A DNA stretch of 63,726 bases, filler included. It is 3 parts of 3 records of this genome, joined end to end, with 100 filler letters (N's around TTAATTAATTAA, not from the genome) between each part and the next. Parts side by side here need not be neighbours in the genome. Positions count along the whole stretch, not along the records: positions 47,172 to 63,726 come from SRR20825019_849; 2 more parts are not named here. The stretch is one strand, 5' to 3'. The notes beneath the pieces are model-generated. The model saw nothing but the letters and a program-made list of their open reading frames with translations. It had not been told where the DNA came from and did not search any database. The position numbers were made by a program, and so were the translations under genes. This document shows positions 4,760-63,726 of the stretch, piece by piece (position 1 is the stretch's first letter; each line of letters opens with the position of its first letter).

Positions 4760-4778
4760 TCAAAACTCTTAATAACGT

Positions 4779-5339: not shown

Positions 5340-5341
5340 TT

Positions 5342-47071: not shown

Positions 47072-47171
47072 NNNNNNNNNNNNNNNNNNNNNNNNNNNNN
47101 NNNNNNNNNNNNNNNTTAATTAATTAANNNNNNNNNNNNNNNNNNNNNNNNNNNNNNNNNNNNNNNNNNNN
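47072..47171. other. Artificial contig-joining spacer
   Basis: Same N-TTAATTAATTAA-N linker as at 22046. Confidence 0.98.
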
Positions 47172-48604
47172 ATGCCGATGCGCTGGCGCTGGCCGCCGGA
47201 GAAACTGTGCGGATAGCGGTTCAGGTGCCGGGCATCGAGCCCGACCAGCTTCATCAGCTCCGATACCATCTCGCGGCGATAGGCATCGTCGCCGATACCG
47301 TGGATCACCAGCGGCTCACTGACGATATCGAACACCGTCATGCGCGGATTGAGAGAGCTGAACGGGTCCTGGAAAACGAATTGCAGCTTCTGACGGAAAT
47401 CCGTGAGCCGGTCGCCATCAAGGCCCAGCACATCAATCTCGCCATCCTGGTCCGCATAGGTGACCGCCCCCTGATCCGGCGTCAGAGCGCGCATGATGGT
47501 CTTGCTGAGAGTGGTCTTGCCGCAGCCGGATTCCCCGACAAGGCCAAGACATTCACCCGGCCGCACTTCGAAGCTCACATCGTCCAGCGCATAGACCTTC
47601 GATTCCTCGCTGGAGAGCCAGGAGCCCTGACGGATGGTGAAGCATTTCGAAAGGCTATCGACCTTCAGGATCGGTTTCTTGCTGTCGACCGGAGCCTTCG
47701 CGGCCTCGGTCGGCGCCAGCAGATGTCCGGTTTCGCTCTTGATGTCACGGATTGGGACCAGTCTTTCGCCCGGCTCCATGTTGAAGCGGGGGACCGCCGC
47801 CATCAGGGCTTTCAGATAGGGATGCTGCGGATCATTGAACAACTGCTCGCGCGTACCGCTTTCCATCACCCGGCCGCGATACATGACCACAACATCGTCG
47901 GCCATGTTGGCGACGACACCGAGATCGTGGGTGATCATCAGCACCGCCATGCCGAGCTCGGCCTGCAGATCCTTCATCAGCTTCAGGATCTGGGCTTGAA
48001 TAGTGACGTCGAGCGCAGTGGTCGGCTCATCCGCGATCAGCAGGGACGGACGGCAGATCAGCGCCATCGAGATCATCGCCCGCTGACGCAATCCACCGGA
48101 CAGCTCGAACGGATAGGTGCGCAGCGCCCGGGCCGGGTCCGGAAAACCGACCATCCGGAGCATATCCTCGGTCAGTTCCTGCGCCTCGCGGCCGGAAACG
48201 TCCCGATGCAGCTCCAGTGCCTCGCGGATCTGGTTCCCCACCGTGTGCAGCGGCGAGAGCGAGGTCATCGGTTCCTGGAAAATCAGCGATATCTGGCCGC
48301 CACGAATCTGCCGCATCGCCTTGCTGTTGCGATTGAGCCGGGCGATGTCGATGATCGTACCTTTTTTACGGTCATCCGCGAACAGGATGGAGCCATTGCG
48401 GATCTGGGCAATCGGGGGAAGCAGACCCATGATAGCCTGGCTGACAACGCTCTTGCCGGAGCCGGATTCACCAACCAGAGCCACGGTTTTACCAGCACGG
48501 ACCTGGAAGGACACCCTGTTTACGGCAAGCAGCTCCCCGCCCGGTAAATCGAACGCAACCTGCAAGTCCCTGACCCGCAGCAGCGGTGTCAGTTGGTCGT
48601 TCAT
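47172..48604 (-). CDS. Opp/Dpp-type ABC importer ATP-binding protein with two fused NBDs, 3' truncated
   Basis: GESGSGKS and GESGCGKT Walker A motifs, YPFELSGGLRQR, DEPTTALDVTIQAQIL, YPHSFSGGQRQRI. Confidence 0.95.
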
Positions 48605-48633
48605 GCCTTTAATCCCCCTGATCCGCCGGCATC

Positions 48634-49134
48634 CTACTGATCCCTTGCGGCCAGCCCCGTGTTTATCCCTGCGGCCACCAGATTATCCGTTGTCGTCTGG
48701 GTTAGTCCAAGATCGTTTTGCCTGGCAGCGGAAGCGGCATGCTCAAGCACGGTCTCAAAACCGTCAAGCGTCGATTCCAGGCTGATTTTCACGCCATTCC
48801 GGTCCTTCAGGACAAGATGCATCCAGCCGGAGTTCTTCTCCTTCTGAGTCGAGTAATAGCGCAGATCCAGTACAGCAAGTTCCGGCCATTTGATGGTCTT
48901 GCTCAAGGGTCCATGCGCCTGAATGCCGACGTCATCGACCTCGTACCTGGTTTGCGCCCGGAGCCAGGTTTTGGCGATAAAGCCGGCGAAAATCAGTGCG
49001 ATCAGCAAAAAGACGATCTGGAAGGTTCCAAGCATCGGCGCAAAGGCGACCGGAAAGGCGGTAACCGCGAACCCAAGGCCGCCGCGCACATAGTCCCCCG
49101 TAACCGCGCCTTTCTTGTATCCGTGCAGGCTCAT
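48634..49134 (-). CDS. Small two-TM membrane protein with soluble C-terminal domain (possibly bacterial PH-like)
   Basis: Two TM helices followed by YEVDDVGI...TIKWPEL...LRYYST...GWMHLVL. 4-nt overlap with the upstream gene. Confidence 0.7.
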   Translation of the reverse strand: MSLHGYKKGAVTGDYVRGGLGFAVTAFPVAFAPMLGTFQIVFLLIALIFAGFIAKTWLRAQTRYEVDDVGIQAHGPLSKTIKWPELAVLDLRYYSTQKEKNSGWMHLVLKDRNGVKISLESTLDGFETVLEHAASAARQNDLGLTQTTTDNLVAAGINTGLAARDQ

Positions 49135-49907
49135 CCCAGATCCTCTACAGGTAAAAAACAGTCATGCGGCGCAATCAGCTCGACGGCCCGATGGGACTTC
49201 ACTTCCAGCATCAAAGCCTCAAGCGCACGCCAGTCCTCGCCCACCATTACCAGATGATGCGTCAAAAGTCCGCTCGGCTCCGCCGGGTCGGCCCGGCCCG
49301 TACGGCGCGCTTCAAGATGCGCCGCCAAAGCGGCCGCCACGGCTCCCGAGCCGACAAATTCACGCGTACCGCGCCAGTCAATGACATCGCTGTGGGTGTT
49401 CACACAGCGCAGGCCCGGCACGGCCGAGGATGCCTGCCGCGGGCCGAAGGTCGAAAGCCCCCTGAAACCGCACCCGGGAAGCGCCTCGACCAGATCCGGT
49501 GCGATGCGATTCCAGGGCGGCACAAAACAGGGAAGCAGAAGCTCCGGAAATGCGTCGCGCAAGGCGCTCAAGGCCGCGCGCGCATCCCCGCATTTATCAT
49601 CCAGCGCGCGGGAGGCCGGGAATTCGCACTTCTTTTCACCGTCCGCCGCATGGTTCCGGTGAGCAAATCCATGCACCAGAAGTTCCGTGCCGGCTCCCGC
49701 AAGACGCGCCGCCAGCCCGCCCATGTCGGCGCCTTCCGGCACAATTGCCAGCCCCGGAACCCATTCCGTCGCCTCCGCCATGGCAAGCAACGGCTCCAAT
49801 GCCGGGGTCGGGCGCTGCAGGTCGTCGTCCCGCCACCAGATCGTGGCGGTCAGTCCCTCCGCATCCCAGCGATCAAGCTCCCGCAGGAGAATGCCGGTCC
49901 CGGTCAC
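49131..49907 (-). CDS. Polysaccharide deacetylase-like (NodB/CE4 fold) protein
   Basis: WWRDDD, LVHGFAHRNH, FVPPWNRI, LLTHH. Confidence 0.8.
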   Translation of the reverse strand: MTGTGILLRELDRWDAEGLTATIWWRDDDLQRPTPALEPLLAMAEATEWVPGLAIVPEGADMGGLAARLAGAGTELLVHGFAHRNHAADGEKKCEFPASRALDDKCGDARAALSALRDAFPELLLPCFVPPWNRIAPDLVEALPGCGFRGLSTFGPRQASSAVPGLRCVNTHSDVIDWRGTREFVGSGAVAAALAAHLEARRTGRADPAEPSGLLTHHLVMVGEDWRALEALMLEVKSHRAVELIAPHDCFLPVEDLG

Positions 49908-51067
49908 GCCGGCTCCAGCAACTGGCTGAGAATGCGCGCCGTTCCGGCAGCGCCATCAAGATCGATGCCCGAAACACCCACCTCACGGCCCGCCACCGCC
50001 TGCTGCATCGCCTGTGCAAGCGCGTCATGGGTCAGGGCATCTTCCGGCACCACGGCAAGGCGTCCGCGCTTCGCCAGCAGATCCGCGCGGATCCGTTGCT
50101 CGGTCTCGACGCCGCCCTCATAGGGAATCACCACGGACGCCGTCCCTGCCGTCAGCACTTCGGCCAGAGTGTTGTAGCCAGCTTGTGAAATCGAAAGGAA
50201 CGCTCTCGAAATGATTGAGGCAAGATCGGGACGGCTGCGCTCGACGATCACGCCCGGCCCGGCCAACTTTTCAATCTCGCGCGCTGCCTCGTCCGGCATG
50301 TGCGGCCCGGTAACAAAGCGCCATGTCCGGTCGGCAAAGGGGAGAGCGGAGCGAAGCTCTGCCACCGCGCGCATGATATCCCCGCCAACGGCCCCGCCAC
50401 CGGCCGAGACCACAACCTCGCCCGCGCCGTCACCAGTTTCATTGCCCGCTATATCGATCGGGTTCAGCACATAGCCGGTATAGCGGACCGGAGGTGTCAG
50501 TTCGTCATACATCGGGAAGGTATCGGCGAGGCTGATGACCGCCTCATCGCCATGCACCAGCACCATGTCGTAGTACCGGTCGACGGTTTCGACGATCTCC
50601 CGGTTGCGGTCCGGGCGCGGTTTGGTGACCAGAATATCCCGCATCGAAGAGACAATTTTCGGTTGCCAGTCCACCGCCTTGGCCCGGTCGAGCAGCGGCA
50701 GCAATTCGAAGCGCATCTGCCGCCGTCCGAAAGGAAACAGCTCCGTGAAAACGATATCGGGGCGGATTTCCTCGAACAGGGCGAGCAATGTGTCGCACCG
50801 GGCAGCGCGCCATGCATCGTCGATTTCCCGGCCGTTCTCGTCCGCCAGAACCTTGAACAGGCTGTCCACGGCACGCACGGGCGGCAACTGATGCAGGATC
50901 GCACCGCCAATATCCAGATGCGGAACCGGCATGCCGCCGGAGACGAAATGCACCTCGAAACCATCAGCGACCGCGGCCTGCGCGACTGCCGCCGCCCGGC
51001 GCAGATGGCCAATGCCCAGGAGGTTCTGGACATAGAGAAAAAGCGTCTTGGGCCGGGTATCCGTCAT
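49904..51067 (-). CDS. GT-B glycosyltransferase, COG4671/GT28-C-like
   Basis: YVQNLLGIGHLRR, ELFPFGRR, VSAGGGAVG, SQAGYNT, EQRIRA. Confidence 0.88.
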   Translation of the reverse strand: MTDTRPKTLFLYVQNLLGIGHLRRAAAVAQAAVADGFEVHFVSGGMPVPHLDIGGAILHQLPPVRAVDSLFKVLADENGREIDDAWRAARCDTLLALFEEIRPDIVFTELFPFGRRQMRFELLPLLDRAKAVDWQPKIVSSMRDILVTKPRPDRNREIVETVDRYYDMVLVHGDEAVISLADTFPMYDELTPPVRYTGYVLNPIDIAGNETGDGAGEVVVSAGGGAVGGDIMRAVAELRSALPFADRTWRFVTGPHMPDEAAREIEKLAGPGVIVERSRPDLASIISRAFLSISQAGYNTLAEVLTAGTASVVIPYEGGVETEQRIRADLLAKRGRLAVVPEDALTHDALAQAMQQAVAGREVGVSGIDLDGAAGTARILSQLLEPA

Positions 51068-51657
51068 GACAGCAGGCTCACATTCATTGCATCCGGACGG
51101 ATCTCCCCGTCCGGGTCGAGACGGACCATATGCATGGCCGACCAGTCAAGCCGGACCGGCGGCTTTCCCATCATGTCCCAGTCCCAGGCGAGTGCCAGCG
51201 CGGCGCGGATCACCCCCTTGTGGGTGACGGCGAGGCAGCGTTCCGGCAGTGGCTGCCGTGCCTGAAGTTTTTCAAAAAACACCTGCAGCCGGCGCTGCAC
51301 ATCGCGTGGAGATTCCCCGCCCGGGGGCCGGAAATCCAGACCCCGGTCCTCGTTCTCTTTCATTTCGGATCCGAGTTGATCCCTGAGCTCGGCAAGCCGC
51401 CGGCCTTCCCAATCTCCCCAATGCATTTCCGTCAGAAGCGGCTCCTCTTCCAGGTAGGCACACCCCGCCAGCGAGGCTGTCTCCCGGGCACGCTGAAGCG
51501 GTGAGATCAGGGCCGGTGCTAGCCGGAAGGCTTCCGGAAGCCGGTAGCGGGCCACCTGTGCCCGGCCTTCTGCGGAAAGCGGGATATCGGTCCGGCCCTG
51601 CAAACGTTGCTCGGCATTCCACGCGGTCGGCCCATGCCGCAGAAATCCGATCAGCAT
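51064..51657 (-). CDS. Histidine phosphatase (phosphoglycerate mutase family)
   Basis: RHGPTAWN..RLQGRTDIPLS, SPLQRARET, EMHWGDWEG, PGGES, VTHKG. Confidence 0.93.
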   Translation of the reverse strand: MLIGFLRHGPTAWNAEQRLQGRTDIPLSAEGRAQVARYRLPEAFRLAPALISPLQRARETASLAGCAYLEEEPLLTEMHWGDWEGRRLAELRDQLGSEMKENEDRGLDFRPPGGESPRDVQRRLQVFFEKLQARQPLPERCLAVTHKGVIRAALALAWDWDMMGKPPVRLDWSAMHMVRLDPDGEIRPDAMNVSLLS

Positions 51658-52778
51658 GGCAGGGCCTCGAGCGCCGCATTCAGCCGGGCCGCAGCGCTTT
51701 CGAGACTATGAGCGCGATTGGCCTGCTCCCGGCCTGCGGCACCGAAGCGGCGCGCAAGATCCATATCGAGAAGCAGCCGATCAAGGTTGACGGCAAAACC
51801 GGCGCTGTCTCCTTCGGCGGAAAGCAGGCCCGTTACGCCATCGCTGACGATATCCGGCACCCCGCCGACATCGCCCGCCACGACCGGAAGTCCGTTGGCC
51901 TGGGCCTCCAACAATGCCATGCCGTAGGCTTCGTTGATCGCGGGCCAGACGAAGATATCCACCGCCTGATAGAGAGCCTGGAGCTGCGCAGCATCTACCG
52001 CCCCAAGCAGATGAACGCGGCCCCGATGCGGCGCGAAACAGGCCTCGACCTCCGGCCGGCCGTCACCATCACCGGCAATGACCAGCGCCCACGGCCGCTC
52101 CGGCGGGATCCGCGACAGGGCATCCGCCAGCACTCTGTAGGACTGGATTTTCACCCCCGGCCGCATCATGCCGACGGCAAGCAGCAACGGAACACCCGCT
52201 GCAATCCCGAGACGTTCCCTCAGCGCGGTCCCGGCACCCGGGTCTTCCGGATAGGGCAGGCCATCGAGGAACGGCTTGATCTCAAGATACCGGCCAGCCG
52301 GCCCAAGACACGGTGCCACACAGCCTTTGTCCCGGCTGTTGAAGCCGATGGCAAGCGCGGCCTGACCGAGCGCTTCCAAAACCCTCTGGTGTGAATCCGC
52401 CCACGGTCCCGACGCCCGTTTCGGGGCATTCGACGCCTCGGCGACCACATAGGGAATGCCAAGCCGGGCCGCGATCCCGGGCCCGATCAGGTCGGGAGCC
52501 TTGTAATAAAGGTGATAGGTGAACCAGAGGTCCGGCGGCACAATCTTTCCGGACTCGCAACATTTCACGAACCGGTCCGTATAACGCGCGCCAAGCCGGA
52601 CGAGCCGGGCCTGACGGGCCAGGTCGCCCTTGCCGTCCCTGCTGCGCAGCCGGGAGGCGAGGAACACCTCATGTCCACCGACACGGAGAGCTGCCATAAG
52701 CAAACGCGCCATGCGCCGGTCTCCGGAGGGTGTCGGTGCATCCGGGGATTTCAGCGGCGCGTGGAAAGCGATCCTCAC
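51651..52778 (-). CDS. GT4 family glycosyltransferase
   Basis: PSGDRRMARL, EAYGMALLEAQANGLPVVA (E-x7-E), DGVTG. Confidence 0.9.
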   Translation of the reverse strand: MRIAFHAPLKSPDAPTPSGDRRMARLLMAALRVGGHEVFLASRLRSRDGKGDLARQARLVRLGARYTDRFVKCCESGKIVPPDLWFTYHLYYKAPDLIGPGIAARLGIPYVVAEASNAPKRASGPWADSHQRVLEALGQAALAIGFNSRDKGCVAPCLGPAGRYLEIKPFLDGLPYPEDPGAGTALRERLGIAAGVPLLLAVGMMRPGVKIQSYRVLADALSRIPPERPWALVIAGDGDGRPEVEACFAPHRGRVHLLGAVDAAQLQALYQAVDIFVWPAINEAYGMALLEAQANGLPVVAGDVGGVPDIVSDGVTGLLSAEGDSAGFAVNLDRLLLDMDLARRFGAAGREQANRAHSLESAAARLNAALEALPC

Positions 52779-54037
52779 GCTGCTTCGTCCGTTCCCGTAG
52801 CAGCCCCCGTAGCAAGCCCAAGCAACGCCGCCAGCGTTCCAATCGCCGTCAGATGATCAAACCGGCTGCGGACCCTGGCCTCTCCGGCCGCCCCATACCG
52901 TGCCCTGAGAGCCGGGTTCCGGATCAGTTCCTCCACCGCCTTCGCCAGAGCCGCAATATCGTCCGGCGGAACAAGGGCGCCGGTGACACCGTCTTCCATC
53001 AGCTCCGGGATGGCGGACACATCCGTGGCAAGGCAGCAAAGTCCCTGGCTCTGCGCCTCCATCAACACATTCGGCAGCCCGTCCCGATCCCCGTCTTCGG
53101 CAATCCGGCTCGGCAGGATGAAGAGATCGGAGCCGCGATAGGCCTCAAGCACCTCACTCTGCGCCGCCGCCCCCCGCCAGGTGATACGCCCGGAAAGACC
53201 CAGACCCTCCGCCTGACCCTTCAGCGCCTTCAGCTCCTTGCCGCCACCGATATGCGTCCAGTGCCAGGATAATTCTTCCGGAAGCCGGGCGAGCGCATCC
53301 AGAAGCTGGTCGAACCCCTTTTTCGGGACCGCGCGGCCGACCGAAAGCAGACGCACAGGTTCACCGGCGCCGTCGCGCTGCACCGGACGTTCAACCCCGG
53401 GCGCGAAACTGGAGAGATCGAGGCCGTGATAGACCAGTCTGGTTTTGCCGGGCACGAGAGACTCCAGATGCTCAAAGCCATAGCGGGTGCAGGTCACGGC
53501 CCAGGCCGCATCGGCCAGCTTTTCGCGCTTCTCCCACTCCGGCGAGAGCCAGATATCCTTGGCATGCGCCGAGGCGGACCAGCTCCGTCCGCTCATCAGC
53601 GCCGCATAGCGGGCGACCGAGGACGGCGTGTGCAGGAAATGCGCATAGATATGGCGAAACTTCGGATCAAGCTCGGTTGCCAGCACCAGTGCCTGGCCGA
53701 AGCGGCGTCCCCGGTTTGGGGTAAAATCACGCTTCAGGTCCTTCAGCCAGAGACGGAAAGTCGCGCCATAGCCGGGCATCCGGCGGGCCTTCCACCAGGC
53801 CTTCAGAACCCGGAGAGGCTCCTGATAGAGGTATTCCGGCAGATAATTGACCCCGGCCGAGATCTTGCCATGCACCGGATGGCTGGCCGTATCCGTCGGA
53901 TGGCGCAGGGAAATGATGGTGTAATCGAGCCCGAGGCGCTGCAGCTCGAGAATTTCCTGCGCGATGAAGGTTTCCGAAAGGCGCGGATAGCCCTTCAGAA
54001 CGATGGCCGTCGGAACGCTCGTCTGTGATCTTGCCAT
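52775..54037 (-). CDS. GT4 family glycosyltransferase (WcaL-like)
   Basis: KGYPRLSETFIAQE, VGRAVPKKG, DRDGLPNVLMEA. Start MARSQ at 54037 preferred over the ORF-track start, which overlaps the upstream gene. Confidence 0.9.
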   Translation of the reverse strand: MARSQTSVPTAIVLKGYPRLSETFIAQEILELQRLGLDYTIISLRHPTDTASHPVHGKISAGVNYLPEYLYQEPLRVLKAWWKARRMPGYGATFRLWLKDLKRDFTPNRGRRFGQALVLATELDPKFRHIYAHFLHTPSSVARYAALMSGRSWSASAHAKDIWLSPEWEKREKLADAAWAVTCTRYGFEHLESLVPGKTRLVYHGLDLSSFAPGVERPVQRDGAGEPVRLLSVGRAVPKKGFDQLLDALARLPEELSWHWTHIGGGKELKALKGQAEGLGLSGRITWRGAAAQSEVLEAYRGSDLFILPSRIAEDGDRDGLPNVLMEAQSQGLCCLATDVSAIPELMEDGVTGALVPPDDIAALAKAVEELIRNPALRARYGAAGEARVRSRFDHLTAIGTLAALLGLATGAATGTDEAA

Positions 54038-54083
54038 AACCTGCTGAACCAATGTGACGCCTGTCCGCGAGCCGGACGCTGGC

Positions 54084-55331
54084 TCAGGCTTCCCGTCGGA
54101 GCACGGCGACCTTGGCGGTGGGGCCCTGCCCATACAACCAGTTCTGTGCCAGCCGATTGACTTCTTCAAGCCCATCCAGCAAACCGGATTCCATCGTCTC
54201 CGACGGAGTCGGCTGACTGGGCAGGCGCCGCAGCGCCTCCGACATGACGTCCGGGTCACGCTCGCCGTCATCCACGAGCATGGCGGTGATCCCCAGCTCT
54301 TCGGCGCGGGCGGCGCGAATATACTGCTCCATCCGCGGCTCCGTCCGGGGCACGATCAGCGCCCGCTTGTCGAAGGACAGAATCTCGCAGAAAGTGTTGT
54401 AACCACCCATGGCGACAATACCCGCCGCGCGCGCCATCAGGCTCTCGATGCGTGAGTCGAAAGTGATGACATCGACCCGGTCGAGCTCGGCGGCCCGCTC
54501 CATGAAGTCGTTCTGCAACTCCGCCGGCATGAACGGTCCAAGCACGAGAAGAGCGCGGTACGGAAGATCCGCATCCGCTTCGTAAGCCTTGAGAACCCAG
54601 TCCATCAGCCCGTCGCCATCGCCACCGCCACCGGCCGTGACAAGAATGAACGGATCTTCAAGATCCGTCGTCATGATCGGGTGCACGTGACTTGGCACCT
54701 TGCGTTTCAGATAGCCCGTATAGGACGTCTTGGCCTGCACGGAGTCCGGCATTGGCATGCCGGAATACGGATCGCAGACAGACTGCAGGCCATAGACCCA
54801 GATGTCGTCATAGACATCGCGCAGGGCTTCGACCGCGTTCTTGCGCTCCCACTCCGGCAGCAGCTTTTCCGGCTCGTCCATGACGTCACGCAGGCCAAGC
54901 ACCAGCGGTGTTCCGCGCTCCTTCAGCATCTCCAGGGTCGGCCGGACCTCGCCGCGCAGCCCCCAGGGCTCCTTGTCCACGATGAAGAGATCAGGGTCGA
55001 ACGCATCCGCCGTATGCTTGATGATCGAGGAGCGCAGATTCAGCGTATCCTCGATATCCAGATGCAGATTGAGCGAGGTGTAATCGCCGTTGCGCAGCTT
55101 GATCACGCCCGGAATGCGGACGAAATCGACGCGCGTGCGAAAATCGAAACTGCCTATGATCGGCGACCCGGACAGAATCAGCACGGACAGGTCGGACTGC
55201 CGTTCCACCAAAGAGTGCGCAATTGCCCGGCAACGCCGGAGGTGACCCAGCCCCATTGTATCGTGGCTGTACATCAGCACACGTTTTGGGCCGCGTTTGT
55301 TGCTAGCAGCGTACGTCAAACGCTCATCCAC
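54084..55331 (-). CDS. GT-B glycosyltransferase, COG4671-like
   Basis: YSHDTMGLGHLRR, LGLRDVMD, VTAGGGGDG, MGGYNTFCE, EQYIRA. Confidence 0.88.
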   Translation of the reverse strand: MDERLTYAASNKRGPKRVLMYSHDTMGLGHLRRCRAIAHSLVERQSDLSVLILSGSPIIGSFDFRTRVDFVRIPGVIKLRNGDYTSLNLHLDIEDTLNLRSSIIKHTADAFDPDLFIVDKEPWGLRGEVRPTLEMLKERGTPLVLGLRDVMDEPEKLLPEWERKNAVEALRDVYDDIWVYGLQSVCDPYSGMPMPDSVQAKTSYTGYLKRKVPSHVHPIMTTDLEDPFILVTAGGGGDGDGLMDWVLKAYEADADLPYRALLVLGPFMPAELQNDFMERAAELDRVDVITFDSRIESLMARAAGIVAMGGYNTFCEILSFDKRALIVPRTEPRMEQYIRAARAEELGITAMLVDDGERDPDVMSEALRRLPSQPTPSETMESGLLDGLEEVNRLAQNWLYGQGPTAKVAVLRREA

Positions 55332-55542
55332 TCACACATCGGCCTTGAAAGCTGAAGGCCCCGCTGAACCGCGGGTTTGATCCCCACGCATATCCCCATT
55401 TTCTTATCACTATGCCACAGTGTTACTTGTGGCAAAACCAGTTTGGCCTAACCCGCATTTACGTTATGACACTGTTCGGTTACTGTTTTGCGCACAAACG
55501 ATTTTTGCCGACATCGCCAACCTGCATAGGCTGACGGACCGC

Positions 55543-58179
55543 ATGGAACCTACGATTTTCCGGTTCATCCTCCGGCACAGCAAGAAAGAACAGATCTTCC
55601 TTCTTGTACTGACCGGACTCTCTTTCCCTTTTCTCTATTATTCTCTCGACCTTCCAAAAACCATCATCAACCAGGCCATCGGCGGAAAAGACTTTCCCCG
55701 CGACCTGTTCGGGTATCAGCTCGACCAAATCCCGTACCTGCTGCTGCTGAGCGTGATCTTCCTCGCCCTCGTCTGCGTCAATGGGGGTTTCAAATACTAT
55801 ATCAACGTCTTTCGCGGCCAGCTTGGCGAGCGCATGCTGCGGCGTCTGCGCTACGACCTTTATGCCCGGGTCCTGCGCTTCCCTCTGCCGCATTTCAAAA
55901 AAGTCAGTCAGGGCGAAGTGATTCCGATGATCACCGCCGAGGTCGAGCCGCTTGGCGGCTTCATCGGCGATGCGGTCTCCCTGCCGGCTTTTCAGGGCGG
56001 CACGCTGCTGACCATTCTGGTCTTCATGTTCGTGCAGGACCCGATCCTCGGCACCGCCGCAATCGCGCTCTATCCGGTCCAGGGCTATATCATTCCGAAG
56101 CTGCAGCGCCGGGTGAACGAGCTTGGCAAGGAGCGGGTAAAGGCAGTCCGCAAACTGTCGGACCGGATTGGCGAGAGCATTTCCGGCGTTCAGGAGATCC
56201 ACGCCAACAATACGGCGCGCTTCGCCCTCGCCAATTTCACTGCCCGTCTGGGCGAGATCTACACGATCCGCTACGAGATCTATCGGCGCAAATTCTTCAT
56301 CAAGTTCCTGAACAACTTCATCGCCCAGCTGACCCCGTTCTTCTTCTATTCGATCGGCGGCGTGCTGGTGATCAAGGGGGATCTCACCTTCGGGGCTCTG
56401 GTTGCCATTCTGGCCGCCTACAAGGATCTGTCCGCGCCCTGGAAGGAATTGCTGAGCTACTACCAGCGCAAGGAAGATTCCCGGATCAAGTACGATCAGG
56501 TGATCGAGCAGTTCGACACGGCGGGCAGCCTGACCGAAGCCCAGCAGCTGGATGAGCCGGAAGAGCCGGTTTCGCTGGCTGGACCGGTGGCACTGCGCAA
56601 TCTCGGCCTGATGGATGACGACGGCGAAGTCCTGCTGGAAAACGTCACCTTCGAAATCAAGCAGGGCGAAAAAGTCGCGATTGCAGGTCCCGGCGGCGGC
56701 GGCAAGGATCTCCTGGCAATGGTGGCGGCGCGCCTGCTGTTACCGACATCCGGCAGCATCACCATGAACGGGATCGACATCTCGGGCCTGCCGGAGGCCG
56801 TCACGGGACGGCGGATCGGCTATGTCGGGCCAAGCGCTTTCGTATTCTCCAGCACAATCCGCGAGAATATGCTGCTGGGCGCCCGTCATGTTCCGCACGG
56901 CGATCCGGACCCCGAATGCTATCCGGATTCCCCCGGCCAGCGCGAAGCCGCGGAAGCATCCGGAAACTCGCTTGACCCGATTTCGGCCAACTGGGTCGAC
57001 TACCAGGCGGTTGGCGTCGAGGAAGACCGCCTGAATGCGCGCCTCGCCGACCTGCTGCGCGTGGTCGGCCTTGAAGACGAGGTCTATGCTTTCGGGTTGC
57101 GCGGCTCCCTTGATCTGGCCAGTCGCGACGAAACCGGACAGCGCATCCTCGGAGCCCGGGCAAAGCTCCGTTCCCGTCTCGGGGAACTGGATCTCGACAC
57201 TCTGGTCGAGCCGTTCGATGCGGAGAAGTTCAACACCAATGCAAGCGTGGCCGAGAACCTGCTGTTCGGCACGCCGGTCGGTGAGCAGTTCAAGCTCGAC
57301 CGTCTCGCCAGCGATCCCTATGTCCGCTCGGTTCTCGACCAGGTTGGCCTGACCGAGGATTTTGTCCGGATCGGCCGCGACGTGGCGGCAACGATGGTCG
57401 AGCTGTTCAAGGATTTGCCACCCGATCATGAATTCTTCGCGCAATATGCCTTCATCTCGGCCGACGAGCTGCCGGATTATCAGACACTGGTGCAGCGGGC
57501 CGACAGGGTTGGCCTGGATGAAATGGGGCCGGAGGACCGGAACCGTTTCCTCGATCTGCCGTTCAAGCTGATCCCGGCCCGGCACCGCCTCGGCATGATC
57601 GAAGAGGATCTGAAAGACCGGATCCTCGAAGCCCGCAAGGCTTTCCGCGAAGGGTTGCCGGAAGACCAGCAGTCCGCGCTGGAGTTCTTCTCTGTCGATC
57701 AGTTCAATCTTGCCGCCTCGGTGCAGGACAACATCCTGTTCGGCAAGATCGCCTACGGACAGGCCGACGCCGGTAACCGGGTCGGCGCAGTGCTCGCGGA
57801 AGTCATCGAGTCCGAAGGGCTGCGCGACACGGTTATCGAGATCGGCCTGGGAGCGGAGGCGGGTATCGCCGGCTCCCGCCTGACCACACCGCAGCGGCAA
57901 AAGGTCGCGATTGCCCGCATGCTACTCCGCCGGCCGGATATCCTGATCCTGAACGAAGCGGTTTCGACCCTCGATTCCGGGGTTCAGGCGCCAACCGTGG
58001 CCCGCATCCTGAAGGAGGCCGGCGACCGGACGGTTATTCTCATTGCCCAGCGCGCCCGCTTGGCGCAACCGTTCGATCGTGTTCTGGTAATGCGCGGCGG
58101 CCGGGTGATCGAAGACGGCACATTTGATACTCTCGACAAGGAAGGGACCGTGTTCCGGGGATTACTCGATGAGGAATAA
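55543..58179 (+). CDS. ABC exporter-like fused TMD-NBD protein with degenerate ATPase motifs and an internal duplication
   Basis: Type IV exporter TMD (LGERMLRRLR..LY..VLRFPLPHF), Walker A region GPGGGGKD, signature region LTTPQRQK, Walker B region ILILNEA. Start MEPTIF at 55543 preferred. Confidence 0.9.
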   Translation: MEPTIFRFILRHSKKEQIFLLVLTGLSFPFLYYSLDLPKTIINQAIGGKDFPRDLFGYQLDQIPYLLLLSVIFLALVCVNGGFKYYINVFRGQLGERMLRRLRYDLYARVLRFPLPHFKKVSQGEVIPMITAEVEPLGGFIGDAVSLPAFQGGTLLTILVFMFVQDPILGTAAIALYPVQGYIIPKLQRRVNELGKERVKAVRKLSDRIGESISGVQEIHANNTARFALANFTARLGEIYTIRYEIYRRKFFIKFLNNFIAQLTPFFFYSIGGVLVIKGDLTFGALVAILAAYKDLSAPWKELLSYYQRKEDSRIKYDQVIEQFDTAGSLTEAQQLDEPEEPVSLAGPVALRNLGLMDDDGEVLLENVTFEIKQGEKVAIAGPGGGGKDLLAMVAARLLLPTSGSITMNGIDISGLPEAVTGRRIGYVGPSAFVFSSTIRENMLLGARHVPHGDPDPECYPDSPGQREAAEASGNSLDPISANWVDYQAVGVEEDRLNARLADLLRVVGLEDEVYAFGLRGSLDLASRDETGQRILGARAKLRSRLGELDLDTLVEPFDAEKFNTNASVAENLLFGTPVGEQFKLDRLASDPYVRSVLDQVGLTEDFVRIGRDVAATMVELFKDLPPDHEFFAQYAFISADELPDYQTLVQRADRVGLDEMGPEDRNRFLDLPFKLIPARHRLGMIEEDLKDRILEARKAFREGLPEDQQSALEFFSVDQFNLAASVQDNILFGKIAYGQADAGNRVGAVLAEVIESEGLRDTVIEIGLGAEAGIAGSRLTTPQRQKVAIARMLLRRPDILILNEAVSTLDSGVQAPTVARILKEAGDRTVILIAQRARLAQPFDRVLVMRGGRVIEDGTFDTLDKEGTVFRGLLDEE

Positions 58180-58209
58180 TCCGGAACCGGTAAGACAAAG
58201 GGTCCACCC

Positions 58210-58665
58210 ATGAGTCTGAATGAAGAAGTCGAGCTCCTGAAGAACATCCCGCTCTTCGCCAAGATCGAGCCATCGAAGCTGAAACTTCTCGCCTTCACCT
58301 CCGAGCGCTTGGTCTATGCGGACGGGCAGGTGCTGTTCAGTCAGGGGGATTCCGGCGATGCCGCCTATATCATCATCGGCGGAACCGCCTCGGTGCTGAT
58401 CAAAACGGAGAACGGCATGGTCGAGGTAGCCCAGCTCAGCAAGGGCGACGTGGTCGGCGAGATCGCCATTCTGTGCGATGTGCCGCGCACGGCAACCGTA
58501 CAGGCCAAGGAAGCCCTGACCACCCTGAAGATCAACAAGGAAGCGTTCTTCCGTCTCGTCACCGATTTCCCGCTGATCGCGGTCGAGATCATGCGTGAGC
58601 TGGCGGCCCGCCTGGAGCAGACCAATGTCCAGCTCCGCGCCGCGCTTTCCGATAACGGAAACTAG
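58210..58665 (+). CDS. Stand-alone cyclic-nucleotide-binding domain protein
   Basis: LKNIPLF, LFSQGDSGDAAYII, GEIAILCDVPRTATV. No HTH follows. Confidence 0.93.
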   Translation: MSLNEEVELLKNIPLFAKIEPSKLKLLAFTSERLVYADGQVLFSQGDSGDAAYIIIGGTASVLIKTENGMVEVAQLSKGDVVGEIAILCDVPRTATVQAKEALTTLKINKEAFFRLVTDFPLIAVEIMRELAARLEQTNVQLRAALSDNGN

Positions 58666-58674
58666 CAGCAGCCC

Positions 58675-59163
58675 GTGAGCCGTCTCGACAGTGCCATCCG
58701 CCGCTTGCAGGCGCAGAAGCTGAGCCTGGAATGGGCCGTCTCGGCCATCGAAAATCATTCCGGAAATGCAATAGAGCTCGGTCTCGGCAATGGCCGGACC
58801 TTCGACCATCTGCGCTCCCTGATGCCGGAGCGCCCCTTCTATGTGTTCGACCGGCAAATCGCAGCGCATCCGGACTGCATCCCGGCGGATGACCGGATTT
58901 TCCTCGGCGATTTCCGCGAGACGCTGGTCACAGCACGGCAGGCGCTCGGCCAGACCGTGCTGCTGGCCCATCTCGATATCGGCACTGGCGAAAAGGCGGC
59001 GAGCATCGCATTGGCGGCGCAAATCGCGCCTCTGGTGGATGCTTTGCTGGCCGACGGCGCCGTGGTTGTCAGCGACCAGCCGGTATCGTTGCCGCGCTGG
59101 ACAGCCGCCGATCTGCCAGAAGAAATCAAGCCCGGCCGTATCCACCTCTACCGAATCGGTTAG
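58675..59163 (+). CDS. Small class I SAM-dependent methyltransferase
   Basis: Motif I AIELGLGNGRTFDHLR, YVFDR, LAHLDIG. Confidence 0.82.
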   Translation: MSRLDSAIRRLQAQKLSLEWAVSAIENHSGNAIELGLGNGRTFDHLRSLMPERPFYVFDRQIAAHPDCIPADDRIFLGDFRETLVTARQALGQTVLLAHLDIGTGEKAASIALAAQIAPLVDALLADGAVVVSDQPVSLPRWTAADLPEEIKPGRIHLYRIG

Positions 59164-59238
59164 CCCCGGCGGGTTGAACCGGGTCGCAACAAGACGCATG
59201 TCACAGCCAGAAAAGCGCCATTTACGCGAGGAAGAGCG

Positions 59239-60324
59239 TTGGATTCACTGACCCAGATCGTGCTCGGCGCGGCCGTCTCCGTTGCCGTCTCCGGACGCCG
59301 CATCGGCCCCCGCAAGGCTGCTCTGCTGGGCGCGGGCCTCGGTACCCTGCCCGATCTCGACGTACTGGTGCGCCATGGCGATGCGGTAAGCGACTTCATC
59401 CTGCATCGAAGCTGGAGCCATTCCCTGCTGGTGCATGCCGCGCTCGCGCCGCTGATCGGCGAAGGCGTGATGCGGGTCTTCAGCGGCCTTCGGGAGCACC
59501 GCGTCACGGCCTATCTGACCGTGTTCCTCTGCCTCGCCACCCACGCGCTGCTTGATGGCATGACGGTCTATGGCACCCAGCTGCTATGGCCTCTGACGAA
59601 TACGCCCTACGGCATCGGGTCCATCTTCATCATCGATCCGCTCTATACCCTGCCGCTGGCCGTCGCCACCGTCTGGGCGCTGCTGCGGCGCGACTGGTCG
59701 GCGAAGGTCGGGCGGGTGACGGCGGTAGCCCTCGCGCTTTCCACTCTCTATCTCGGCTGGTCCCTGGTGGCGCAGCAGGTTGCCAACGGGAAGGCCCGGG
59801 ATGTTCTCGCAAATGCCGGGATCAGGGCCGAGAAGGTATTGGCCACGCCGATGCCCTTCAACACCGTGTTCTGGCGCACCATCGCGATCGATGGCAGCCA
59901 TTACTACAATATCTATCAACCGCTTCTTGCCGGCCCGGACGCGGCCCGCATCCATGCCCACCCGCGCCTCGCCGACGGTGCTCCCTGTCTGGATACGATC
60001 CCCAGCGCTGCCGCCGTCGCGGCTTTCTCGAAGGGCTATTACCGTGTCTTCAGGGACGAGAGCGGACTCCGGATCGCCGATCTCAGAATGGGCGTGACGC
60101 CGAGTTTCGTCTTCGATTTCCGGATCGCATCACCGGATGGCGATAGCTGGAAAGCGATCCTGCCGGAGCGGGTCATAAACGCCCGGTCAGCGCCCGGCGA
60201 CATAGGCTGGCTGCTTGATGGCATGTTCGGCGGAAACACTGTGCGCCCGTCGGAAGCGGCCGCTCTTTTCGATCCGGCGGCGCCGTTAATTGCCGTTCTG
60301 CCAGAGACGCCTGCCTGCGGGTGA
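59239..60324 (+). CDS. Membrane-bound metal-dependent hydrolase (YdjM-like)
   Basis: MDSLTQIVLGA, LPDLD, HRSWSHS, THALLD.MTVYGT, IFIIDPLYT. Confidence 0.88.
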   Translation: MDSLTQIVLGAAVSVAVSGRRIGPRKAALLGAGLGTLPDLDVLVRHGDAVSDFILHRSWSHSLLVHAALAPLIGEGVMRVFSGLREHRVTAYLTVFLCLATHALLDGMTVYGTQLLWPLTNTPYGIGSIFIIDPLYTLPLAVATVWALLRRDWSAKVGRVTAVALALSTLYLGWSLVAQQVANGKARDVLANAGIRAEKVLATPMPFNTVFWRTIAIDGSHYYNIYQPLLAGPDAARIHAHPRLADGAPCLDTIPSAAAVAAFSKGYYRVFRDESGLRIADLRMGVTPSFVFDFRIASPDGDSWKAILPERVINARSAPGDIGWLLDGMFGGNTVRPSEAAALFDPAAPLIAVLPETPACG

Positions 60325-60339
60325 GTTCACTTTCTAAAA

Positions 60340-60424
60340 CCGTCATTCCCTCGAAAGAGGGAACCTAGCGATCATCGAACCATGTCCGTCTTCCCCTGGG
60401 TCCCCGCGTTCGCGAGGATGACGG
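60340..60424. repeat. Alphaproteobacterial REP-like palindromic element
   Basis: CCGTCATTCCCTCGAAAGAGGGAACC...GGGTCCCCGCGTTCGCGAGGATGACGG: terminal inverted repeat with two internal hairpins, between convergent genes. Confidence 0.8.
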
Positions 60425-60451
60425 CTCTTTCTTTTTATTATTTTTAGCCGC

Positions 60452-61243
60452 TCAATCCAGATCGACGATCACCGGGGCATGGTCGGACGGCTTCTCGCCG
60501 CCGCGCATGGCTTTCACCACGGCAGCAGATTTCAGCCGGCTTTTCAGCGGCTCCGTCACCCAGACATGGTCGAGGCGGCGGCCCTTGTCGGCCAGCTCCC
60601 AGTTCTTCGACCGGTAGCTCCACCAGGAATAGAGCTTTTCCGTTTCGGGAACGAAATGGCGAACCGCATCGACCCAGCCGAGTCCGGCCTGCAGCTTGCC
60701 CAGCTCCTCGACCTCGATCGGGGTGTGGCTGACCACTTTCAGCAGCTGCTTGTGCGACCAGACATCATGCTCCAGCGGCGCAATGTTGAGGTCGCCGACC
60801 AGCACCATCGGATCGCTGCCCTTACGTTCGGCCCCGAACCAGCTCTGCATCTCGGCCAGGAAATCGAGCTTGTGGGCGAACTTGTCGTTCACCGCCGGAT
60901 CCGGCTCGTCGCCGCCCGCCGGTACATAGAAATTATGCACTTCGGGTCCGCCGTCGAGACGAACCGCGAGATGCCGGCAATCCGTCTTGCCGCACCAGTC
61001 ACGCTGGCCCTCATCCGTGAAGGGCACGCGGGAGACCACGGCAACGCCGTTATAGCTCTTCATGCCCCGGATCGCCTGATGGACATATCCCGCATCCTTC
61101 AGTGCCTCTGCCGGGAAGGTTTTGTCCTCGGTCTTGGTTTCTTGCAGGCAGAGCACGTCGGGTGCCTGTTCTTGCAGGAAACGCAGCACCGTCGGCAGGC
61201 GCAGGCGCACGGAATTGATGTTCCAGGTGGCAATCCGCATCAC
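60452..61243 (-). CDS. xth: Exodeoxyribonuclease III
   Basis: ATWNINSVRLR, LQETK, YNGVA, GDLNIAP, WWSYR, RLDH, SDHAPV. Confidence 0.95.
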   Translation of the reverse strand: MMRIATWNINSVRLRLPTVLRFLQEQAPDVLCLQETKTEDKTFPAEALKDAGYVHQAIRGMKSYNGVAVVSRVPFTDEGQRDWCGKTDCRHLAVRLDGGPEVHNFYVPAGGDEPDPAVNDKFAHKLDFLAEMQSWFGAERKGSDPMVLVGDLNIAPLEHDVWSHKQLLKVVSHTPIEVEELGKLQAGLGWVDAVRHFVPETEKLYSWWSYRSKNWELADKGRRLDHVWVTEPLKSRLKSAAVVKAMRGGEKPSDHAPVIVDLD

Positions 61244-61271
61244 TCTGTCTTTCGGTTCGGGGAGTTAAGGA

Positions 61272-62060
61272 TTATTCGGCTGCGGCGGCGAGGCCGAGAC
61301 GGGCATTGAGATGGGCCCGGCAGGCATCGCCGAAAGCCTCGAAGATTTTCTTGTTCAGCCCCTCGATCGGAACCGGCCATTCCGGGTGCCACTGCACGCC
61401 GAGCACGAATGCCTTGGCGCCGGGCACGCTGATCGCCTCGACGATACCGTCCGGCGCCACCGCCTCCACAACCACGCCGTCGCCCGGCTGATCAATGCCC
61501 TGGGCATGCAGCGAGTTGACCAGCGCGGTATCGGTCCCGGCGATGCGGGCAAGCTTGCCGCCTTCGGTTATGCGAATTTCATGGGCAGGTCGGTATTTGC
61601 GCGTGTACGCGACATCCCGGCGCATGCGGTGATCGAACCGGTCTTCCATGTCGAAGATGCGCTGATGCAGGGTGCCGCCGAGGGCGACATTCATTTCCTG
61701 GATCCCCCGGCAGATCCCGAGCACCGGCACACCGGCTTCGATCGCCTTGCGGATCAGCGGCAGGGTAACGCCGTCGCGGCGCGGATCGTGCTCGGTACCC
61801 TCGACACTGTCGGGGCCGTTGAAGTTATGCGGCTCGACATTCGACGGGCTGCCGGTCAGCAGCAATCCGTCGAGATGGGCCACCAGACTGTCCAGATCCA
61901 GCGCGCCCGCTTCCAGCGCCGGAATGATCATCGGCAGGCCGCCAACCGGGGTCGGCACGCAGCTGACGTATTTTTCGGAGACCTTCTGCGTCGAATGGTC
62001 CTCGCTCTGCAGATGACAGGCAGTGACACCGATCAGGGGCAGGTTCGGGACGGACAGCAT
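61272..62060 (-). CDS. Gamma-glutamyl-gamma-aminobutyrate hydrolase family (peptidase C26, PuuD-like)
   Basis: DGLLLTGSPSNV, LGICRGIQEMNVALGG, VNSLH.QG, GVQWHPE. Confidence 0.92.
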   Translation of the reverse strand: MLSVPNLPLIGVTACHLQSEDHSTQKVSEKYVSCVPTPVGGLPMIIPALEAGALDLDSLVAHLDGLLLTGSPSNVEPHNFNGPDSVEGTEHDPRRDGVTLPLIRKAIEAGVPVLGICRGIQEMNVALGGTLHQRIFDMEDRFDHRMRRDVAYTRKYRPAHEIRITEGGKLARIAGTDTALVNSLHAQGIDQPGDGVVVEAVAPDGIVEAISVPGAKAFVLGVQWHPEWPVPIEGLNKKIFEAFGDACRAHLNARLGLAAAAE

Positions 62061-62156
62061 CTAAGGCTCCTCGGCTCATGACTGGTAACGCCCGGATCTC
62101 CGGGCTGTGAGGGCGCGCAACTGGCGGCGCCGGAATTCGCCTGCCATATTCGCTCC

Positions 62157-62927: not shown

Positions 62928-62936
62928 GATCACCGC

Positions 62937-63560: not shown

Positions 63561-63645
63561 AAAACCTGAAATGGCAGGCGTTCGCCCCGCTTGCAAGCGG
63601 CAATTCCAAGGCAGACCTGCTCCCACGACCATCATCACTCTCAAA

Positions 63646-63726
63646 CGTCATCCCTGCGCACGCAGGGACCCAGGAATGGCGGGCACACCTCTATGGTCGC
63701 CTGGGTCCCGGCTCTCCGGCCGGGAT
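63646..63726. repeat. Second REP-like palindromic element, truncated by window end
   Basis: CGTCATCCCTGCGCACGCAGGGACCCAG...CTGGGTCCCGGCTCTCCGGCCGGGAT has the same architecture as 60340-60424. Confidence 0.75.

Follow-up and report, generated by a model that had tools for sequence, protein, structure and literature searches.

Conserved glycosyltransferase, deacetylase-like, Opp importer, and degenerate ABC/cNMP genes in a Nisaea contig and across the Alphaproteobacteria

The stretch of DNA analyzed here (the window, 63,726 nucleotides [nt] in length) consists of three contigs, the third of which (positions 47172 to 63726, 16.5 kb) carries a compact cluster of genes for four glycosyltransferases (GTs), a histidine phosphatase, a deacetylase-like enzyme designated p258, a small membrane protein, and part of an Opp-type importer, together with a divergently transcribed unit that encodes a degenerate ATP-binding cassette (ABC) protein, a cyclic nucleoside monophosphate (cNMP)-binding protein, and a methyltransferase. 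The joins, at 22046 to 22145 and 47072 to 47171, each have the form N44 + TTAATTAATTAA + N44. The G+C contents of the contigs at 1 to 22045, 22146 to 47071, and 47172 to 63726 are about 40%, 52%, and 62%, respectively, and the source bin looks mixed. Proteins encoded on the third contig, which holds the entire cluster, are 82 to 97% identical to those of six Nisaea genomes, so it can be assigned to Nisaea. The genome nearest to the window by k-mers (G001) is kin to another of its contigs, and none of 401 genomes searched in the class of G001 had a match to p258.

Domains were called by searching the window proteins with Pfam and NCBIfam profiles. Counted from the divergent spacer, the minus-strand run begins with GT28a (54084 to 55331), a GT-B enzyme with a GT28-type C-terminal domain (PF04101, 36.8 bits), followed by two GT4 family enzymes, GT4a (52775 to 54037; PF00534, 115.7 bits), whose start was placed at the in-frame ATG at 54037, and GT4b (51651 to 52778; PF13692, 103 bits, and Glycos_transf_1, PF00534, 97 bits). 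Next come a branch 1 histidine phosphatase (51064 to 51657; His_Phos_1, PF00300, 141.2 bits with a cut-off of 21.7), the second GT-B enzyme with a GT28-type C-terminal domain, GT28b (49904 to 51067; Glyco_tran_28_C, PF04101, 43 bits), and p258 (49131 to 49907), a 258-amino-acid (aa) enzyme whose AlphaFold2 (AF2) model and sequence motifs resemble those of CE4/NodB-fold deacetylases. The run ends with a 166-aa membrane protein (48634 to 49134), predicted from hydropathy to pair an N-terminal hydrophobic hairpin with a soluble C-terminal part, and with the N-terminal 477 residues of an Opp/Dpp-family double ATPase (47172 to 48604; ABC_tran, 179.9 bits, and oligo_HPY). The plus strand encodes an 878-aa membrane protein with the ABC exporter fold (55543 to 58179; PF00664, 84 bits, and a split PF00005 match, 62 bits), a stand-alone cNMP-binding protein of 151 aa (58210 to 58665; PF00027, 72 bits), and a predicted S-adenosylmethionine-dependent methyltransferase of the Methyltransf_17 family (58675 to 59163; PF12692, 172.8 bits). 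The start of the ABC protein was set at M42 (55543), where its relatives begin and upstream of which two of them have a stop codon, and this leaves a spacer of 211 nt between the two units.

These open reading frames and domains are those listed in an earlier description of the same DNA (the original prediction), which had also pointed to five consecutive start/stop overlaps of 4 to 7 nt, a divergent region of about 210 nt, and enzymes without signal peptides. The overlaps were found to measure 4 nt (GT4a/GT4b), 7 nt (GT4b/phosphatase), 4 nt (phosphatase/GT28b), 4 nt (GT28b/p258), and 4 nt (p258/membrane protein), and no hydrophobic segment was detected in six enzymes by a crude test (a 19-residue window with mean hydropathy of at least 1.6). 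A gap of 46 nt separates GT28a from GT4a (the GT28a stop codon is at 54084 to 54086), as in Nisaea denitrificans, and one of 29 nt lies between the genes for the membrane protein and the Opp ATPase.

The divergent spacer (55332 to 55542, assigned to neither strand) is well conserved, with a mean column identity of 87% in an alignment of the window with six Nisaea loci. It contains a perfect inverted repeat, TGCCACA-N8-TGTGGCA (55413 to 55434), that occurs once in the window and never in 100 shuffles. The repeat is exact in four of the six Nisaea loci, has one base changed in the other two, and is found in none of the other 75 loci compared, so it is confined to Nisaea. It can be considered a candidate operator for a regulator; no sigma-70-like promoter or terminator was found in the 211 nt. 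RNA-library contigs from three studies (150 to 330 nt long, with 0 to 9 differences) match both units.

Twelve genes are collinear in all six Nisaea loci. In a search of alphaproteobacterial species representatives centered on N. denitrificans, p258 homologues (E value of 1e-10 or better) were detected in 126 of 401 genomes of its class; marine Nisaea, Azospirillum, roseobacters, and model rhizobia are among the carriers. Forty of these loci, picked for long contigs and not at random, were fetched with 20 kb around p258, and genes were counted with tblastn as non-overlapping best hits within the 20-kb frame. At least three GT genes adjoin p258 in 30 of the 40 loci (one more, L064, has GT genes in fragments), and among these 30 GT-bearing loci the Opp ATPase gene is found in 27 and the ABC-like gene in 23. 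Thus, the two divergent units co-occur far beyond Nisaea, and the lack of co-occurrence that would have counted against the original prediction is not what was found. The phosphatase is encoded in 28 of the 40 loci, as are the binding protein and each permease of the importer, the cNMP protein in 25, the membrane protein in 23 (its gene being flanked by those for p258 and the Opp ATPase), and the Methyltransf_17 protein in 16. Nine loci have p258 with one or no GT gene, and four of these (L038, L039, L060, and L069) keep the importer. The genes of this cluster, their coupling, and their conservation are matters of observation.

Genes flanking the cluster were scanned in 32 core-bearing loci, a set chosen by a criterion that counted cross-hits and was two loci more generous than the 30 given above. 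Recurrent neighbors include Methyltransf_24 proteins (11 loci), MBL-fold hydrolases (8 loci), and enoyl-CoA hydratases (6 loci). An adenylate/guanylate cyclase had been named in the original prediction as a companion to look for; a class III cyclase gene does lie nearby in 7 of the 32 loci, and the rhizobial versions have one as well. In L064 (G607:C6:423400-443399), the ABC, GT28a, GT4b, and GT28b genes match only as several short pieces each, and the module at this locus appears to be in decay. On the Azospirillum oryzae plasmid unnamed7 (L081, 3549 to 4793), a lone GT28a homologue, the top plasmid match of GT28a at 68% identity, sits beside transposase genes of the Tn3 and IS6 families; the rest of the module is not there, and this locus was set aside as evidence for the cluster.

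The rhizobial versions were found on plasmids. A tblastn search of plasmids with GT28a returned 274 records, mainly from Rhizobium (143) and Sinorhizobium (80), and counterparts were recognized on plasmid pA of Rhizobium etli CIAT 652 (redA/redB), on pRL11 of Rhizobium johnstonii (leguminosarum) 3841 (pRL110046 to pRL110056), and on a megaplasmid of Sinorhizobium meliloti Ak57 that has the size of pSymB (L079). Their GT28a proteins are 50 to 53% identical to the window protein (52.7% for the R. etli redA product), and in S. meliloti the identities are 54% for GT4a, 41% for GT28b, 42% for GT4b, and 37% for p258. Similarly to the Nisaea cluster, they encode an ABC-like protein of ∼900 aa followed by a cNMP protein and have a complete Opp importer, with the class III cyclase alongside. 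They differ in lacking the histidine phosphatase and in gene order: the cyclase and Opp genes precede redA on its own strand, and the GTs are followed by the ABC gene, likewise on that strand, and the cNMP gene. They also carry additional genes, for a nucleotide-sugar dehydrogenase, a DUF3095 protein, FkbM or class I methyltransferases, and, in S. meliloti, a PF14099 polysaccharide lyase, encoded between the cyclase and the Opp importer, for which a sequence search gave no solved relative (L079, 7699 to 8667 for the lyase and 4575 to 5912 for the dehydrogenase). The presence of the lyase and the dehydrogenase hints at a product that contains uronic acids.

Such rearrangements bear on the alternative that the Opp importer, the ABC/cNMP unit, and the GT operon are mere neighbors and do not form one system. 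The 29-nt gap before the Opp ATPase, the divergent transcription of the ABC unit, and the existence of loci without one or the other unit would fit this alternative. However, the linkage survives at 40 to 70% protein identity and through the rhizobial reshuffling, so mere adjacency is already disfavored and appears very improbable.

Literature searches found no characterized product for this module, in agreement with the original prediction, the rhizobial counterparts being known from transposon screens alone; nothing was found on redA/redB of Rhizobium or on COG4671, nor anything relevant on optA/optD of R. leguminosarum. An insertion sequencing (INSeq) study, in its available text, lists pRL110047 (“permease of ABC exporter”) among the genes required in pea nodules (bioRxiv 10.1101/2020.05.07.082560). 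Judging by gene order on pRL11, pRL110047 should be the counterpart of the ABC gene. The transposon-screen data come from two preprints, this one included; as far as their available portions go, they report that loss of optAD (pRL110053-54) is advantageous in the rhizosphere and that pRL110046 (“FNR/CRP regulator”) is needed for root attachment at some pH values.

GT28a and GT28b are distant paralogues (26% identity), and it is only their C-terminal PF04101 domain that matches the GT28 family. Full-length matches to MurG were not obtained: GT28b scores 37.9 with the murG model against a cut-off of 250, GT28a yields no such hit at an E value of 0.001, and a 27-sequence GT28a profile reaches only the C-terminal half of MurG (E value of 0.079). 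No solved relative of GT28a was found by sequence. The closest folds to its AF2 model (predicted local distance difference test [pLDDT] score of 83) are those of GT1 small-molecule UDP/TDP-glycosyltransferases, with E values of about 1e-14 and template modeling (TM) scores of 0.52 to 0.61. The nearest solved relatives of GT4b are 3c4q/3c48, maltose-1-phosphate synthase, BshA, a sucrose-phosphate-synthase-like protein, and an inositol-3-phosphate glycosyltransferase, which act on soluble, often phosphorylated acceptors, although only the donor-binding, C-terminal half of GT4b is aligned. Those of GT4a are Tll1590, PimB′, PimA, PglA, and, again, the sucrose-phosphate-synthase-like protein. Members of the GT4 family retain the anomeric configuration of the donor sugar, and those of GT28/GT1-like families invert it. 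The methyltransferase has a solved relative, 3iht (E value of 1.2e-29), for which no function is named.

The histidine phosphatase retains the RHG motif (FLRHGPT, residues 5 to 11), and its nearest solved relatives are alpha-ribazole phosphatase (E value of 2.5e-24), PhoE (3e-15), and the mycobacterial glucosyl-3-phosphoglycerate phosphatase (5.6e-11). It scores under every NCBIfam equivalog cut-off (CobC, 110 versus 162.9) and, by sequence, is a generic branch 1 histidine phosphatase. Wherever it is present, it is encoded between GT4b and GT28b, with GT28b adjoining it throughout the compared loci that have both.

The translational coupling of this phosphatase with GT4b, together with its mycobacterial match and the similarity of GT4b to the sucrose-phosphate-synthase-like protein and maltose-1-phosphate synthase, could suggest a compatible-solute pathway in which a GT and a phosphatase act in turn, as in GpgS/GpgP, sucrose-phosphate synthase and phosphatase (SPS/SPP), or trehalose-phosphate synthase and phosphatase (TPS/TPP), with decorating enzymes added. 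This analogy, drawn in the original prediction, was not supported. No GpgS, TPS, or SPS equivalog was matched, scores being far under the NCBIfam cut-offs (for SPS-type models, at most 44.6 bits against at least 576), and the cluster has no GT81 or GT20 enzyme. Four GTs with an exporter fold and an importer do not make an osmolyte layout; a deacetylase, a cNMP-linked exporter fold, and an importer are all foreign to the known osmolyte operons, and the rhizobial versions do without the phosphatase. An osmolyte pathway therefore seems quite improbable.

The p258 protein, named “polysaccharide deacetylase family protein” in some sources, matches no Pfam family even at an E value of 10, Polysacc_deac_1 included, and no NCBIfam family, so it belongs to a divergent branch of CE4. 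Its AF2 model, built from a 36-sequence alignment (mean pLDDT of 96.5), is predicted to have the distorted (beta/alpha) barrel of the NodB fold. The top Foldseek matches are CE4 proteins, namely, 3rxz, PgdA, chitin deacetylases, acetylxylan esterases, and ArnD, with E values of 2e-8 to 1e-5 and TM scores of 0.51 to 0.63. Family CE4 enzymes are recognized by the motifs TFDD, HxxxH, RxPY-like, and LxH, which contribute an Asp-His-His metal site and the catalytic Asp and His. The residues that are invariant in the 36 sequences (DDD27-29, H79-x3-H83, PPWNR130-134, and HH217-218) are consistent with these motifs. The original label, “CE4 deacetylase,” is thus backed by the predicted fold and motifs but not by any Pfam hit, and p258 is best described as a predicted divergent cytoplasmic CE4-fold enzyme, whose target could be an N- or O-acetyl group. 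The 166-aa membrane protein encoded next to it, with a hydropathy segment at residues 20 to 60, belongs to no Pfam or NCBIfam family; at an E value of 10, it yields only chance-level Pfam hits (E values of 0.13 and 4.8).

In the window, the Opp ATPase is represented by 477 of the 632 aa of the N. denitrificans DSM 18348 protein, because the contig starts at 47172, directly after the N linker that ends at 47171. In N. denitrificans, the full-length ATPase gene is followed by genes for a SBP_bac_5 binding protein and two permeases and then by pgk. The system therefore has all the parts of an Opp/Dpp-type importer, that is, an oligo_HPY ATPase, a family 5 binding protein, and two BPD_transp_1 permeases, with the latter components located beyond the contig end in the window; their company with the ATPase, which remained to be looked for when the cluster was first described, thus extends from N. 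denitrificans to 28 of the 40 loci. With the incomplete query, no named importer reached its equivalog cut-off (GsiA, 460.6 versus 1077; YejF, 412.9 versus 834; OppD, 377 versus 575). Among solved proteins, the Nisaea binding protein is closest to 5ipw (E value of 6e-76), SPH1118 (3.5e-66), and an alpha-galactoside binder (1.5e-26), and it partially matches chitin-oligosaccharide binders. SPH1118 is described in the available text as binding pectin and pectin oligosaccharides (PMC9314435). The earlier remark that importers of this family also carry oligosaccharides is thus matched by sugar binders among the solved relatives, and the similarity favors a carbohydrate cargo, perhaps an acidic one.

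The 878-aa protein consists of an ABC_membrane transmembrane domain followed by an ABC ATPase domain that matches PF00005 in two stretches. It falls far under all NCBIfam equivalog cut-offs, the best of these sub-threshold matches being to MsbA and HepA. None of the canonical ATPase motifs (GxxGxGK[ST], hhhhDE, LSGGQ, and the His residue of the H-loop) is present in this protein, which has GPGGGGKD in place of Walker A, ILILNE in place of Walker B, LTTPQ in place of the signature, and Gln at the H-loop. Across a 24-member alignment of the family, Walker A reads GxxGSGK with the next residue mostly Asp or Glu and with the Lys sometimes replaced by Arg, the Asp position of Walker B is mostly Ser or Asn, the signature is LSxxQ, and the H-loop varies. 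The name “pseudo-ABC” given to it in the original prediction is accordingly apt for the whole family. The acidic Mg2+ ligand seems to have been swapped from Walker B (residues 798 to 811) to Walker A (residues 380 to 391). Judging from these motifs, the protein may bind ATP with an altered geometry. Between Walker A and the signature, there are three copies of a post-Q-loop module (S-x-x-x-N-[ILM]-L-[FL]-G ... G-L-x-D), the first of which retains signature-like and Walker B-like remnants; the insert matches no Pfam family at an E value of 10. The transmembrane domain is the best-conserved part of the protein, with many invariant residues.

The cNMP protein contains PF00027 and no second Pfam domain above the cut-off. 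In 24 sequences, G83, R93, T94, and A95 are invariant and E84 is nearly so; these residues can be read as the phosphate-binding cassette. It lacks the helix-turn-helix that, with the cNMP domain, makes up a CRP/FNR protein (53 bits with the CRP equivalog model, with a cut-off of 266), so that the Crp/Fnr label in rhizobial records is not supported by its domain content. Its gene comes after the ABC gene in 25 of the 40 loci, and among the best 150 ABC representatives from a library of 1.84 billion proteins, 45 have a cNMP-like domain fused at the C terminus. A complex of ABC residues 340 to 878 with the cNMP protein was modeled in three ESMFold2 runs with no supplied alignments, giving interaction prediction scores from aligned errors (ipSAE) of 0.69, 0.70, and 0.69 versus 0.00 for the best control. 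Scores at this mark were obtained for 51 of 78 solved complexes and for 2 of 108 mismatched pairs. The three runs share at least 95% of the contacts, and the pLDDT of the partner is at least 83. The interface falls within the inserted modules (ABC residues 620 to 635, 681 to 684, and 738 to 742) and includes the invariant ABC residues E620, F622, H681, R682, and G739 as well as the likewise invariant K25, L26, F29, and R33 of the sensor; the predicted docking site spans ABC residues 620 to 742 (window positions 57400 to 57768). The model supports docking of the cNMP protein on the ABC insert, and together with the fusions it backs the tie between the two proteins that had been proposed from their adjacency.

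A degenerate ATPase next to a persistent importer might mean that the system faces inward, with the Opp proteins importing an environmental or host oligosaccharide or peptide, cytoplasmic enzymes remodeling or salvaging it, and the ABC-like protein serving as a sensor or regulator. The importer is the part most often kept beside p258 (31 of the 40 loci, including L038 and L069, which have no GT genes), and glycosylation of an imported substrate had already been raised in the original prediction. However, four biosynthetic GTs with no core glycoside hydrolase or kinase do not form a catabolic layout, and the ABC transmembrane domain, being the best-conserved part of its protein, suggests a substrate path. 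Inward salvage is accordingly viewed as distinctly unlikely.

The transmembrane domain is also the starting point for the first of the rivals in our ranking, which goes on with inward salvage, the osmolyte, and mere adjacency. Its type IV/MsbA-like character and the MsbA and HepA matches would fit a membrane glycolipid or lipid-linked glycan, built by peripheral GT-B enzymes on a lipid acceptor at the inner leaflet, de-N-acetylated by the CE4 enzyme, and flipped in the manner of MsbA. CE4 enzymes are known to de-N-acetylate in aminoglycolipid pathways. GT4a counts PimA and PimB′, which are phosphatidylinositol mannosyltransferases, and the lipid-linked PglA among its solved relatives, glycolipid synthase models are among the weak GT4 matches, GT28-type C-terminal domains are found in MurG, and RedA is called “membrane-anchored” by the R. 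etli annotators. On the other hand, no hydrophobic or obviously amphipathic anchor was seen in the enzymes, the nearest folds to GT28a are soluble GT1 enzymes and not MurG, the histidine phosphatase would have no clear role, and a dedicated binding-protein importer with sugar-binding relatives is hard to fit. A glycolipid is therefore an unlikely product.

Carrier-free cytoplasmic chemistry appears favored, given the lack of hydrophobic segments in the enzymes, the GT1-like fold of GT28a, the soluble and often phosphorylated acceptors used by the relatives of GT4b, the 7-nt overlap between the genes for GT4b and the phosphatase, and the absence of priming, flippase, and polymerase genes from the contig. 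As stated in the original prediction, no nucleotide-sugar, priming, or Wzx/Wzy genes are found on this contig; this applies to the 4.5 kb that remain outside the cluster, on a contig of only 16.5 kb. Our leading explanation, put forward tentatively and at slightly under even chances, is a carrier-free cytoplasmic small glycan or glycoside that crosses the membrane via a cNMP-controlled degenerate ABC protein and is recaptured by a sugar-type Opp importer. Four soluble GT-B enzymes, two of GT4 and two of GT28/GT1-like type, would build a short sugar chain in the cytoplasm with no polyprenol carrier. GT4b probably uses a phosphorylated acceptor, either as its starting point or for a further addition; the histidine phosphatase, to which it is translationally coupled, would then strip the phosphate, cytoplasmic p258 would remove an acetyl group, and the methyltransferase(s) may cap the product. 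The ABC exporter-fold protein, whose ATPase has no canonical catalytic residues, would move the product across the inner membrane under the control of a cAMP- or cGMP-binding protein docked on its inserted module, and the Opp-family importer would take up the product again, intact or in a processed form. What the product is, each chemical step in its making, and which way it is transported are inferred from these predicted functions. The product would be a small cytoplasmic oligosaccharide, formed via a phosphorylated intermediate, N-deacetylated, and methylated.

Several points weigh against a released and recaptured glycan. No product, substrate, or phenotype is on record for any gene of this exact module, and the RNA-library contigs that fall on the cluster are no proof of its transcription, just as gaps in their cover carry no meaning. 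The histidine phosphatase is missing in the rhizobial versions and in L063 and L075, so a phosphorylated intermediate cannot be universal, and the similarity of GT4a and GT4b to solved enzymes lies mainly in the donor-binding half and does not name the acceptor. Seven of the 30 GT-bearing loci have no ABC unit in the frame (although L051 has one at the frame edge), and the Opp ATPase was not seen in three. Without a functional ATPase, the exporter fold may fail to transport anything, and MsbA-type folds usually handle lipids or lipid-linked cargo. The score of the complex model is a measure of confidence and not a measurement, and same-family fusion partners can pass by likeness. Finally, Opp-family importers for the most part carry peptides, and 5ipw, the best-scoring solved relative of the binding protein, is labeled a putative oligopeptide binder with no named ligand.

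A bolder version of the scheme, which we regard as rather doubtful, is a release-and-recapture loop in which a cyclic nucleotide gates a conduit that works with no canonical ATP hydrolysis, the acidic residue having moved from Walker B to Walker A and the module having tripled as a docking platform for the sensor. The cargo would be a partly de-N-acetylated, methylated, carrier-free oligosaccharide that serves as an extracellular or periplasmic signal or a public good and is then reimported; in rhizobia, where the module gains a UDP-sugar dehydrogenase and a polysaccharide lyase, it would be rich in uronic acids, and the module could underlie glucuronan-type products. The genes for rhizobial glucuronan were stated to be not known in the available text of a 2023 paper (PMC10180729). 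The glucuronan link is given a low probability because a homopolymer would not need four transferases.

The present analysis contributes the site on the tripled insert at which the sensor is predicted to dock, the exchange of residues between Walker A and Walker B, the relationship to SPH1118, and the predicted CE4 fold of p258. The marker gene for p258 occurs in roughly one in three of the alphaproteobacterial species genomes sampled, and carrier-free glycan assembly, a cAMP/cGMP-tied exporter fold with no canonical ATPase, and a dedicated importer are rarely joined. Resolving the module would assign a function to a large family of degenerate ABC proteins and would provide a bacterial cyclic-mononucleotide output that does not act through transcription. 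Given that pRL110047 was listed by INSeq, in the text available, as needed in pea nodules, a possibly new surface or signal glycan might be relevant to nodule life, and the rhizobial copies make the module directly testable in harmless strains that are genetically tractable.

The 4.5 kb of the third contig that are left outside the cluster encode a YdjM-family membrane hydrolase, an EEP-family phosphatase/nuclease, a C26 peptidase, a fatty-acid hydroxylase, and LolA. The YdjM gene (59239 to 60324) and the EEP-family gene come after the methyltransferase gene (window 59239 to 61243). The former is kept in all six Nisaea loci and was excluded from the module because it was matched in none of the 40 other loci; the latter is also found at the edge of the N. 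denitrificans locus (L003) and was seen again in 4 of the 32 core loci. On the other contigs of the window, the first has genes for a TonB receptor, an M16/M61 peptidase, and RNase E/G, and the second has few long open reading frames, including one for an 811-aa ankyrin-repeat protein on the minus strand (31744 to 34179).

Several known systems resemble parts of the module. In the msbA2 operon of S. meliloti (SMb21188-SMb21191), GTs are co-transcribed with an MsbA-type exporter for a symbiosis-relevant polysaccharide (PMC3687685, PMC12239276). Compared by description only, it differs in having four genes, for an acyltransferase, two GTs, and MsbA2, and the available parts of these papers do not mention an importer, a cNMP protein, a phosphatase, or a deacetylase. 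The sugar-type family 5 binding proteins, such as SPH1118 of Sphingomonas sp. A1, MelB of Agrobacterium, and the chitin-oligosaccharide binders, are similar to the Nisaea protein over the full length (SPH1118) or in part (the others), but they belong to catabolic or chemotactic systems with no paired biosynthetic operon.

The NdvB/NdvA (ChvB/ChvA) system makes cyclic beta-1,2-glucan in the cytoplasm with no lipid carrier and sends it to the periplasm through a type IV ABC exporter. The ABC protein scores weakly with the NdvA and ChvA models (145 and 123 bits, with cut-offs of 733 and 585). However, NdvA has a working ATPase, one giant synthase stands in place of four small GTs, and there is neither a cNMP sensor nor an importer. 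In mycothiol and bacillithiol synthesis, the acceptor of a GT4 enzyme (MshA or BshA) is small and in part phosphorylated, and the next steps are dephosphorylation (MshA2) and de-N-acetylation (MshB or BshB). MshA and BshA are among the best matches of GT4b, albeit at 78 and 74 bits with cut-offs of 462 and 274; the deacetylases of those pathways are of the LmbE type, in contrast to the CE4 fold of p258, and the present cluster has no cysteine ligase and has three further GTs. A parallel for the control of passage is offered by cyclic di-GMP (c-di-GMP)-dependent secretion systems (BcsA-PilZ, Alg44, and PelD), in which a second messenger bound at the cytoplasmic face licenses the passage of the glycan. 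In the module described here, the sensor is instead of the cAMP/cGMP type (PF00027), has no fused synthase, and is predicted to dock on a degenerate ABC ATPase domain.

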